Source of the DNA: Pecten maximus
Lineage: Eukaryota
NCBI RefSeq assembly: GCF_902652985.1
Contig: NC_047019.1
Coordinates: 24,738,001-24,802,000, forward strand
Direction: 5' to 3'
DNA length: 64,000 nt
Part shown: piece after piece, positions 42,001 to 44,740 of the stretch
Layout: the number at the start of each line of letters is the position of its first letter
Numbering within the stretch: position 1 is the first letter of the stretch
Position numbers and translations under genes: made by a program
The notes under the pieces: model-generated
Seen by the model: the letters and a program-made list of their open reading frames with translations, nothing else
The model's database searches: none
What the model was told of the DNA's origin: nothing

Positions 42001-44740
42001 AGAATGTTACAAGGTATGGTGCTACATGTTAGAATGTTACAAGGTATGATACTGCATAGTAGAATGTTACGGGGTATGATACTACATAGTAGAATGTTAC
42101 TGGGTATGATACTACATAGTAGAATGTTACTGGGTATGATACTACATAGTAGAATGTTACAGGGTTTTACACTACATAGTAGAATGTTATGGGGTATGGT
42201 ACTACATAGTAGAATGTTATGGGGCATGGTACTACATATTAGAATGTAAGGGAATATGGTGCTACAGATAATACTACTCAACAAGACTTGATTACAGAAA
42301 AGGTAAGATTCGATTAACATACTTGCAACGTGCTGAACATGAATTGAGGTATGTCTTTCCGTCCGTCCCGCACACCTGAGCCTTAAAAGGAGGACATCTA
42401 CATCTCTTGTTACACGGACATCCACCAGGGCATTTTACTCGAGTCTTTCTGTCAAACATTATTTGGAACTACAATGTTTGTTTAAACGCCAAACCTGTTA
42501 TACTACTACCATACGGAAATATAACTACTATGTTTCCATACAAAAAGTGAGATTTCTCATCTAGTTCATTTGTCAATTTTTCATTACGAACACACAAGAC
42601 TATTACATATTGTTAATATATATACCAAGCATTGTGGTTCACATATTGTCTAAATCACACAATTGTCCCTCGCGTTAAGATGCAAGTAATTATTGTGCTT
42701 TTCCGTAACAAACATGTGTCTGCTCTAAGAAAGAATGTAAAAAAAGGCTTAATAAACCTCATATTGTGTATGATGCAGAAAGCAATGATTAAGTAGTCGA
42801 TATATCTTGATTTAGTAAAGCTGCTTACTTGCATTTTGCCACACACGCGTTTGGATATGTCCTTCCGTTTTCTCCACACACAGGAGAGAGACGTCTGTTA
42901 CAGGCACACCTCGCTGTACACGGACAACTTCCAGTGCATTGTATTTTTGCATTTCTGTGAAAGATGATGAAGTGTTGATGGATTCAGTACTAGAATTTAT
43001 CATTAGCACCTTTGTAACAGATAATGAGAGAGATCTTCTCTTTAGCTCGATCGGTTGAGCGTAAGACTAGTAAGCCAGAGGTCCCGGGTTCGATCCCTAG
43101 CGGAGGCAGTGATTTAAATTTGATTTATCATGCGCTCTGTTACATTGGCGCCCATGTAGGGACTCGGGAATGATACTCATCGCTGCTTGCGAAAGCATCG
43201 CTGTTACCCCTGGAAACTCGAGGACGAGTTCTTTCCTGGAGGGGGAGTATGTAACCCTGGTAAAATACTAGCCGCAATATACCGCTCGGCTAGAGAGATC
43301 TTCTCTTTAGCTCGATCGGTTGAGCATAAGACTAGTAAGCCAGAGGTCCCGGGTTCGATCCCTAGCGGAGGCAGTGATTTAAATTTAATTAATCATGTGC
43401 TCTGTTACATTGGCGCCCATGTAGGGACTCGGGAATGATACTCATCGCTGCTTGCGAAAGCATCGCTGTTACTCCTGGAAACTCGAGGACGAGTTCTTTC
43501 CTGGAGGGGGAGTATGTAACCCTGGTAAAATACTAGCCGCAATATACCGCTCGGCTAGAGAGATCTTCTCTTTAGCTCGATCGGAACGTAAGACTAGTAA
43601 GGAAGAGGTCCCGGGTTCGATCCCTAGCGGAGGCAGTGATTTAAATTTAATTAATCATGTGATCTGTTACAATAAGAATGCATTTCACGAGATTTGACTT
43701 ATTAAACGTTTTATCTTAATAGCATCGCTTTCATAAAATATAACAATAGAGAATACAATATTTATCTACTCACGCACACTTGGCCTTGCACTTATTGGAG
43801 TATGTTGTGCCATTCCCTCCACATACAGGCTGGAATTCCTCGGTACATATACAGTCTGGCTCACACGGACATCTCCGATTGCATGCTATGGTGACACCCC
43901 TACACCATAACCATGTACATATATGCATATACAAATAAACAAAGGTAACTACAAAACGGCATCCTAAACTACGACCTCAACGTCCATGCTTTAAATTTTG
44001 GCTTTTTTACTACTTTTGCTTTGTTTGTTTCTATTTTCCAGTGGTGATGTTTCCGAATAATGGTTTATCAGACATTAAAACACTCTTAATTAGAGAAAGA
44101 CTACCGTACTCATCAAATTTAAACAATGCTAATGCTCACGCTCTCTATTCTAAACGCTATGACCGACTAGGGTTGATTATCAAAAGCCATCATTTTCTGA
44201 AACATCTCGTAAGGCAAAGTACAAAAACTTGCGATTATAAGAATAGAAGCAGTTGATGATATAACAAAAGGCATAATGAAATATATGTATGCAATAGTAA
44301 GATTGATTTTGCTTTAGAGCTATAAAGATTTAAGCGGGATCGTTGCTATATAACGTTTCTTTCAAGTGCCATGTCTGATTCTATTTCTGATTGTCCATGT
44401 GATACTAATACCTTCTTTGTTTTACAATCACAGCGAACAGAGCGAATACCTTCGTCTAGCCAAGCAGGCGTTTGTGTACGTCCTTCCGTCCTCACCACAC
44501 ACACGGCTACCGCGACATATTACTTGTCCTGTTATTGAAACAAAATCTTACTGTGAAAATTACAAGATCTGTAAACTTAACTAATGATTCTTATGACAGC
44601 AATAGTAATCAGAAAACTAATGAAAATGGAGTACAGTATGGAAGAACAGGAGTTTACATGTACATACGTCGTGACTCCACTTGGACAACCTGTAAATAAA
44701 TTAAAAGTAGTACAAACACTGCCAGTGACTTCTTCATCAT
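36084..44740 (-). CDS. Kazal gene A: secreted multi-Kazal protein, 10 domains, 12 exons, about 449 aa
   Basis: Exons 44740-44668 ([24 protein letters not shown]), 44528-44450, 43899-43774, 42954-42829, 42448-42323, 41003-40881, 39466-39338, 39022-38897, 38443-38318, 37659-37537, 36637-36506, 36144-36084 (..[14 protein letters not shown]). Exons 3-11 are all phase 2-2 with CxC..VCGxDGxTYxNxCxAxC. Confidence 0.92.
37915..38270. repeat. 30-bp minisatellite (intronic copy)
   Basis: Unit TAGTAGAATGTTACAGGGTATGGTACTACA; a shorter copy lies at about 38740-38850. Confidence 0.9.
41725..42270. repeat. 30-bp minisatellite
   Basis: About 18 units of TAGTAGAATGTTACAGGGTATGGTGCTACA; source of the spurious [10 protein letters not shown] / [13 protein letters not shown]s. 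Confidence 0.95.
43013..43671 (+). mobile_element. Tandem three-LTR TRIM with tRNA-Thr(AGT)-derived LTRs (Helenus/TRIMp3-like)
   Basis: LTRs TGTAAC...GTTACA at 43013-43144 (5'-shortened), 43250-43409 and 43515-43671. The two 105-bp internal segments start with PBS TGGCGCCCATGTAGGGAC (tRNA-Lys-like) and end with PPT GGAGGGGGAGTA. Each LTR has A-box TAGCTCGATCGG, loop CTAGTAA and B-box GGTTCGATCCC. Confidence 0.85.

Follow-up and report, generated by a model that had tools for sequence, protein, structure and literature searches.

The family Helenus-1_PeMa belongs to the TRIMs (terminal-repeat retrotransposons in miniature) of the scallop Pecten maximus and is listed in Table S1 of its published description with a long terminal repeat (LTR) of 159 nt, an interior of 105 nt, a full length of 423 nt and a target site duplication (TSD) measuring 4 nt (Kojima 2024, PMC10886601). 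In the same source, its primer binding site (PBS) is placed under tRNA-Lys-CTT (Fig. S2C), the tRNA-derived cassettes of molluscan Helenus elements are aligned with tRNA-Lys-TTT, and Gypsy elements are argued to act as helpers of animal Helenus. Tandem TRIMs are most commonly found with three LTRs and two interiors, a form that makes up 63 of 93 cases in maize and that is also common in TRIMs lacking any module for RNA polymerase III (Pol III), with 129 subfamilies counted across 35 of the 43 plant genomes (Gao 2016, PMC4717578). In sugar beet, three LTRs are present in 65 of 97 tandem TRIMs, and TSDs are kept in 73 of the 97 (PMC13570524). Long arrays are formed by Cassandra (Kalendar 2020, PMC7215508) and arrays have likewise been described for the bivalve element biv-TRIM (Satovic 2019, PMC6934838), while for Helenus the main text of Kojima (2024) names only the zebrafish LTR-11_DR as a tandem. 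Here we report on a stretch of 64,000 nucleotides of P. maximus (NCBI RefSeq assembly GCF_902652985.1, contig NC_047019.1, positions 24,738,001 to 24,802,000, forward strand; hereafter the window, numbered from its first letter), in which positions 43025-43671 hold a tandem that, judged by its sequence, is a copy of Helenus-1_PeMa. From our point of view, the locus very probably goes back to one insertion of this TRIM, which later lost the U3 segment of its first LTR and underwent a local duplication, so that the tandem would be a by-product.

A tandem-repeat analysis of the window placed a repeat at 43027-43671 with a period of 265 bp, 2.4 copies and 96% matches, and the order LTR-interior-LTR-interior-LTR with this period, as proposed in a preliminary description of the same DNA, proved to be real. 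On the plus strand, LTR1 (43025..43144, 120 bp) is composed of the terminal TG and an intact 118-nt core, with a 40-nt deletion relative to LTR2 that has removed the U3 hairpin. It is followed by interior 1 (43145..43249, 105 bp), with the PBS core at 43146-43154, a hairpin at 43215-43230 and the core of the polypurine tract (PPT) at 43238-43247, and by the complete LTR2 (43250..43409, 160 bp), which ends in TGTAAC...GTTACA. Interior 2 (43410..43514, 105 bp) has its PBS core at 43411-43419, its hairpin at 43480-43495 and its PPT core at 43503-43512, and LTR3 (43515..43671) closes the array with 157 bp. Of the lengths stated earlier, 160 bp is correct for LTR2 and 105 bp for both interiors. Between the two interiors there is a single substitution (104 of 105 positions identical), 4 of 118 sites distinguish LTR1 from LTR2, and LTR2 and LTR3 show 5 substitutions as well as a 3-nt deletion. 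The segment LTR2-interior 2-LTR3 (422 bp, TG...CA ends) represents a whole element by itself.

When compared by eye with the Helenus-1_PeMa consensus, interior 1 agrees at 105/105 and interior 2 at 104/105 positions, and the LTRs agree at 116/118 (LTR1 core), 157/160 (LTR2) and 151/160 (LTR3) positions. Family membership is set by Kojima (2024, PMC10886601) at more than 90% of length and identity; the identity of all parts lies above this value, LTR1, however, being only 120 of 159 nt long. In line with the Helenus (TRIMp3) type, the element is smaller than ~1 kb, non-coding (the longest ATG frame has 49 codons) and bounded by TG...CA LTRs, and in both interiors the PBS adjoins the 5' LTR and the PPT the 3' LTR. 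The earlier proposal of a Helenus-type TRIM with tRNA-like LTRs is thus borne out by the match to the consensus. A BLAST search with one unit revealed no second copy elsewhere in the window, the best outside match having an E value of 0.57.

All three LTRs contain a tRNA-derived sequence with retained A and B boxes and a defective cloverleaf, as expected for Helenus (TRIMp3). The cassettes lie at 43036..43108 in LTR1 (A box 43043-43054, B box 43087-43097), at 43301-43373 in LTR2 (A box 43308-43319, B box 43352-43362) and at 43566-43635 in LTR3, where the 3-nt deletion directly follows the A box. The spacing of the boxes is 44, 44 and 41 nt, respectively, and a CT-AGT-AA loop is found at the anticodon position. 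Of the possible pairs, LTR1 and LTR2 retain 5/7 in the acceptor stem, 4/4 in the D stem, 2/5 in the anticodon stem and 4/5 in the T stem, and LTR3 retains 3/4 in the D stem and 1/5 in the anticodon stem. ARAGORN reported no tRNA gene in the window, Rfam gave no match at E<=1 within 42800-43900, and the cassette does not fold more stably than shuffled sequences (z +0.69). Since both programs miss the cassette, its tRNA origin rests on the register of the motifs and on Kojima (2024), and it is best read as the relic of an internal promoter and not as an intact tRNA. The same Rfam search (E<=1, 42800-43900) returned no 5S rRNA-derived LTR sequence of the Cassandra type; the module is of the tRNA type. 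The label "Thr" attached to the cassette in the preliminary description rests solely on the AGT triplet of the loop, and Helenus-1_PeMa does not belong to the seven bivalve families shown in Fig. S1 of PMC10886601 as able to encode tRNA-Thr. The A box, the AGT loop and the B box of the preliminary description are confirmed in each LTR.

Of 24 sequencing runs, 20 contain part of the element and 13 at least half of its words. Contigs of four runs (X1, X2 and X3, which are DNA by guess, and the RNA run X15) were compared with 42300-43291, i.e., the left flank and one unit; runs X17-X24, with a small share of the element or none, were excluded. Summed contig depth, which is not a copy number but shows the family to be large and dispersed, amounted to 17-77 on the intron flank vs 2.4e4-5.8e5 on the element. 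Loose contig ends with mixed flanks (agreement 0.41-0.44) accumulate at 43144/43145, where at least 26+26 contigs were counted in X1, 35+36 in X2 and 38 in X3. Further loose ends mark the LTR start, at 43249 (at least 13 contigs in X1) and, in copies lacking an extra A, at 43263 (at least 15 contigs in X1 and 26 in X2). Among the matches listed, ends at the 3' terminus of the LTR are found in all three DNA-type runs and ends at its 5' terminus in two of the three. Copies that do not stop at TGTAAC/GTTACA had been named beforehand as the observation that would overturn the LTR reading; other copies do end at the LTR termini, and together with the presence of PBS and PPT this upholds the earlier view that the repeat is neither a short interspersed nuclear element (SINE) nor a tRNA repeat, despite its resemblance to both. 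At least 36, 53 and 64 contigs in X1, X2 and X3, respectively, carry the U3 hairpin segment ahead of 43027, and LTR1 can for this reason be said to lack it. Two further lines were considered and set aside. Contig joints "going back 265" merely reflect intact LTRs aligned on a permuted unit and are no evidence of a tandem. Likewise, the 88 contigs of X15 that fall on the stretch do not prove Pol III transcription, as contigs carry no information on start, strand or polymerase.

The left end of the element had been placed at 43013, with the TGTAAC-like stretch at 43013..43020 read as the start of a 5'-shortened LTR1 and with no visible TSD. However, ATAA at 43021..43024 recurs directly behind LTR3 at 43672..43675; a scan of 28 candidate left ends for repeats of 4-6 bp brought up no other. 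The probable left TSD is followed immediately by TG at 43025, just ahead of position 43027, where homology to the family starts. ATAA plus TG is expected at that site by chance with a probability of ~6e-4, whereas a fortuitous TGTAAC within 41 nt has one of ~0.014-0.019. The left end is therefore probably 43025, with the 4-bp TSD ATAA and a 40-nt deletion in LTR1, which is favoured ~20 to 1 over a start at 43013, and the TGTAAC-like stretch is more likely host intron. As such, a TSD does flank the element if it starts at 43025, and of the earlier account of LTR1 the shortening holds (40 nt are missing), but probably not the starting point. In X1 (contig 42780-43035) and X3 (contig 42343-43056), the segment 43013-43026 is covered at single-copy depth; the X3 contig extends 30 letters beyond the junction, one short of the bridging rule, and X1 or X3 may itself be the source of the window.

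As to how the tandem arose, two variants that deviate from the consensus are common to LTR2 and LTR3, namely an additional A close to the 5' end and a C>T exchange at 43398/43660. In LTR1, only the latter site is available for comparison, and there (43133) the consensus C is retained. These shared variants fit a local duplication of the 3' unit better than a read-through copy, in which the U5 regions of the two outer LTRs should be identical. The evidence is nevertheless weak, as it comes from one CpG site and the derived T accounts for 5-6% of the depth among other copies.

A different history, which we regard as unlikely, is that the three-LTR form moved as a unit, i.e., that a tandem donor gave rise to Pol III read-through RNA, from which reverse transcription and integration produced the present copy. 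It is the nearest workable form of the earlier idea that Pol III transcription from within the LTR benefits from a tandem in order to yield a complete template, and it would agree with the lack of any run of four T residues (T4) in the element, with the probable TSD around the whole array and with the concatenated transcripts known from Cassandra, for which template switching is given as one route (Kalendar 2020, PMC7215508). It predicts, however, identical U5 regions in LTR1 and LTR3, whereas the derived T at 43398/43660 is faced by C at 43133 (again one CpG site and thus weak). Moreover, a monomer already supplies the full template. The proposed benefit of the tandem itself was not supported, given that LTR2-interior 2-LTR3 is already whole and that three-LTR TRIMs are common without a Pol III module.

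Somewhat less probable still is that two nearby insertions recombined between their LTRs with loss of the intervening DNA, a route that has been described for TRIM tandems (PMC7215508, PMC6934838). LTR1 would then start with TGTAAC at 43013, carry a deletion with 8 nt of filler and have no TSD. The TGTAAC located 14 nt ahead of the start of homology would be accounted for in this way, and so would the differences between LTR1 and LTR2 (4/118 sites), 3 of which separate LTR1 from LTR2 and LTR3 in common. Yet ATAA plus TG would have to be fortuitous and the filler would come on top. With the TSD model, TGTAAC is all that has to be put down to chance, and by our estimate this comparison yields the ratio of ~20 to 1 given above. 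That the cassettes are functional tRNA-Thr(AGT) genes, part of a tRNA-derived SINE or units of a plain satellite is largely refuted and highly improbable: the A box, B box and AGT loop do stand in tRNA register and the RNA run X15 includes contigs of the element, but the anticodon stems pair at only 2/5, 2/5 and 1/5, ARAGORN, Rfam and the fold statistic gave no support, the family stands outside the tRNA-Thr-capable set of Fig. S1, the cassette lies inside a TG...CA repeat and not at a 5' end as in a SINE, and copies stop at LTR termini next to a PBS and a PPT.

Returning to the single insertion with later local duplication, the following course can be envisaged. One element would have inserted in antisense orientation into a short intron of a gene for a multi-Kazal protein and generated a 4-bp TSD; afterwards, 40 nt would have been lost from the U3 part of the 5' LTR, and a second unit of interior plus LTR would have been gained through local duplication, by unequal exchange or slippage. 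For the mobility of the family, TFIIIC may bind the A and B boxes and Pol III may initiate a few bases ahead of the tRNA relic (about 43290-43300 in LTR2). The longest T run in the element is 3 and the first T4 is located at 43709, 38 nt beyond its end; Pol III, meeting no T4 stop, would presumably read through the interior and enter the next LTR. The absence of T4 implies that a monomer transcript would already give terminal redundancy, as has been described likewise for Cassandra (PMC10886601). A Gypsy helper with a Lys PBS could then package the RNA, with priming by host tRNA-Lys at the PBS and further priming at the PPT, followed by integration. Within the window, the core of the Lys PBS occurs only in the two Helenus interiors. 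The Lys-like PBS had been contrasted beforehand with the Leu PBS of a nearby Gypsy element, and both assignments agree with the literature (Lys-CTT in PMC10886601; Leu-type for the Gypsy). We set this neighbouring Gypsy aside as probably not the helper owing to its Leu PBS, its different LTR ends and its lack of a Helenus-type hairpin, which is not among the 2 perfect 5-bp hairpins in the last 300 nt before its 3' LTR; that the helper belongs to another family, as suggested earlier, is reasonable.

Several points weigh against this account. According to the author, Pol III function has not been validated for Helenus, and the alignment with tRNA-Lys-CTT, for which an Aplysia tRNA was used, matches over 9 nt and then needs a 1-nt gap (PMC10886601). 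A literature search on Helenus and Pol III from 2024 onward brought up, besides this paper, one review. No helper was found in the window, its sole Gypsy being of the Leu PBS type. How the tandem came about is judged from one informative CpG site, and the divergence of LTR2 and LTR3 (5 substitutions plus the 3-nt deletion) exceeds what would be expected for a very recent duplication. The loose ends listed for X1-X3, which cover one unit and the left flank, include no empty allele, X2 being without cover at 42810-43013; this gap in X2 proves nothing as to an empty allele. Finally, the 10 bp at 43013-43022 match the LTR3 end exactly in inverted orientation, and neither model of the left end would lead one to expect this. 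A 9-base inverted match is also present near 42894-42902 in the neighbouring Kazal exon; both may represent chance, a target preference or a relic end.

With respect to secondary structure, the TAGCCG...CGGCTA hairpin that the preliminary description had placed ahead of the cassette is present in LTR2 (43269-43292) and LTR3 (43534-43557) but absent from LTR1. Its region at the 5' side of the LTR is not clearly more stable than expected by chance (z -1.61, with 13 of 200 shuffles as stable). In LTR2 it is joined by a second hairpin at 43292-43306, and two adjacent hairpins thus precede the A box at 43269-43306 and at 43534-43571. Several other bivalve and nemertean Helenus LTRs in Data S1 of PMC10886601 retain, by eye, both of these hairpins with altered yet pairing stems, and the LTRs of Ajax show a similar second hairpin ahead of an A-box-like motif (PMC10886601). 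The shared second hairpin hints at a common ancestor of Ajax and Helenus, and one could imagine that the two conserved hairpins may serve strand transfer or the choice of the Pol III start site.

The interiors had been described as holding PBS and PPT only. Both are indeed present in each interior; in addition, however, a 6-bp hairpin lies 19 nt ahead of the next LTR in each of them (43215-43230 and 43480-43495). Similar hairpins precede the PPT in plant Gypsy elements and in Cassandra, so that the feature is possibly already known. A literature search on such pre-PPT hairpins found nothing relevant, and neither "hairpin" nor "palindrom" occurs in the main text of PMC10886601. The region does not fold beyond the level of shuffled sequences (z -0.54, 52 of 200 shuffles as stable; whole interior z +0.36), and one exact-pattern scan for the PPT-LTR junction in metagenome contigs found 0 loci. 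By eye, 11 of 13 scallop Helenus consensuses carry a hairpin before the PPT with the same three closing pairs and a purine loop of 3-4 nt, among which three compensatory stem types can be distinguished; the twelfth family has another stem and the thirteenth no hairpin. These consensuses are related and not independent samples, and the compensatory changes were judged by eye. In the supplement of PMC10886601, similar hairpins can be recognized by eye in the interiors of both Ajax families and of some Helenus families from oysters, nemerteans and wasps; in many mussel and pearl-oyster Helenus the hairpin is absent or long-looped. One might tentatively propose that the pre-PPT hairpin, with its stem closed by CG/CG and its purine loop, is a conserved cis-acting signal for recognition or packaging of the RNA by a Gypsy helper, although we consider this doubtful at present. 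If true, the hairpin would be a tag for finding the helper and would tie Helenus to Ajax.

The element lies antisense in a GT-AG intron of the multi-Kazal gene, 70 nt from the acceptor. As deduced from the DNA, this intron (42955..43773, minus strand) measures 819 bp, or 168 bp once the element and one TSD are subtracted. The exons on either side, 43774..43899 upstream and 42829..42954 downstream (minus strand, 126 bp each, the former in frame with the next exon), match Pfam Kazal_1 with E values of 1.8e-06 and 2.6e-06, respectively, and both matches exceed the curated cut-off. In a pattern scan of the window, 14 Kazal-like exons were recognized between 63417 and 36520 (minus strand). They seem to belong to a gene for a secreted multi-Kazal protein at 63657-36520 (minus strand) with a signal-peptide-like first exon near 63657-63587, which appears to host both the Helenus copy and the Gypsy element in its introns. 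A further Kazal-like exon outside the list of the pattern scan is found at 44447-44520 (minus strand), its frame apparently lacking part of the Cys pattern of its neighbours, and several Kazal exons near 36.5-42.4 kb look co-duplicated with a 30-bp intronic minisatellite.

The Gypsy element (54994-63050, minus strand) looks young, with LTRs of ~840 bp that are 2 substitutions and 2 indels apart and a 4-bp TSD (CATC). Its gag-protease (613 aa) and pol (reverse transcriptase-RNase H-integrase, 1102 aa) frames are open and overlap in different frames, and its PBS is Leu-type as assigned from Fig. S2A of PMC10886601. An extra frame of 294 aa between pol and the 3' LTR (56017-56901, minus strand) exhibits zinc-finger-like Cys/His motifs close to its start and is rich in Ser/Asp in its middle part; it has no Pfam match at E<=0.001. 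Degenerate ~49-bp repeats border the 3' LTR end of the Gypsy at 54190-54762. Elsewhere in the window, a 43-bp satellite with strong GC skew forms a 15-kb array of 354 copies at 18856-33863 and a short second block at 34607-35091, and an inverted repeat at 41361-41514 (70-nt arms, 74% complementary, 14 nt apart) is possibly a miniature inverted-repeat transposable element.

Overall, the family is already known, its name and consensus having appeared in 2024, and the locus is largely ordinary: it represents one more three-LTR TRIM, here of a scallop Helenus, and the family itself adds nothing. It does illustrate why LTRs that bear tRNA sequence can be mistaken for tRNA genes or SINEs. From this copy, we see two handles, namely the intact monomer LTR2-interior 2-LTR3 beside a natural U3 deletion in LTR1, which lends itself to promoter tests, and the pre-PPT hairpin, which may tag the helper.

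In comparison with known systems, the element resembles the Helenus-1_PeMa consensus in its interiors (104-105/105), its LTRs (94-98% by eye), its ends, Lys-type PBS, PPT and probable 4-bp TSD, and deviates from it by three LTRs and two interiors, the 40-nt deletion in LTR1 and the 3-nt deletion in LTR3. Helenus-3_MiYe, Helenus-2_ArIr and Helenus-1_MiYe from two other scallops (PMC10886601) resemble the present element, by eye, in LTR layout, U3 hairpin, AGT loop, Lys-type PBS and pre-PPT hairpin, but are more diverged, with most of the divergence falling into the interior's 5' half and the segment beyond the B box. Like Cassandra (PMC7215508), it is an LTR element without coding capacity whose LTRs enclose a Pol III module. 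Cassandra, however, is a plant element with a 5S-derived module, a described terminator and demonstrated transcription, whereas the module found here is tRNA-derived and has no T4, its use by Pol III being a prediction. Lastly, biv-TRIM (Satovic 2019, PMC6934838) is likewise a bivalve TRIM with shared-LTR tandems, but it is described as having no identified canonical PBS and the passages on it mention no tRNA-derived LTR.

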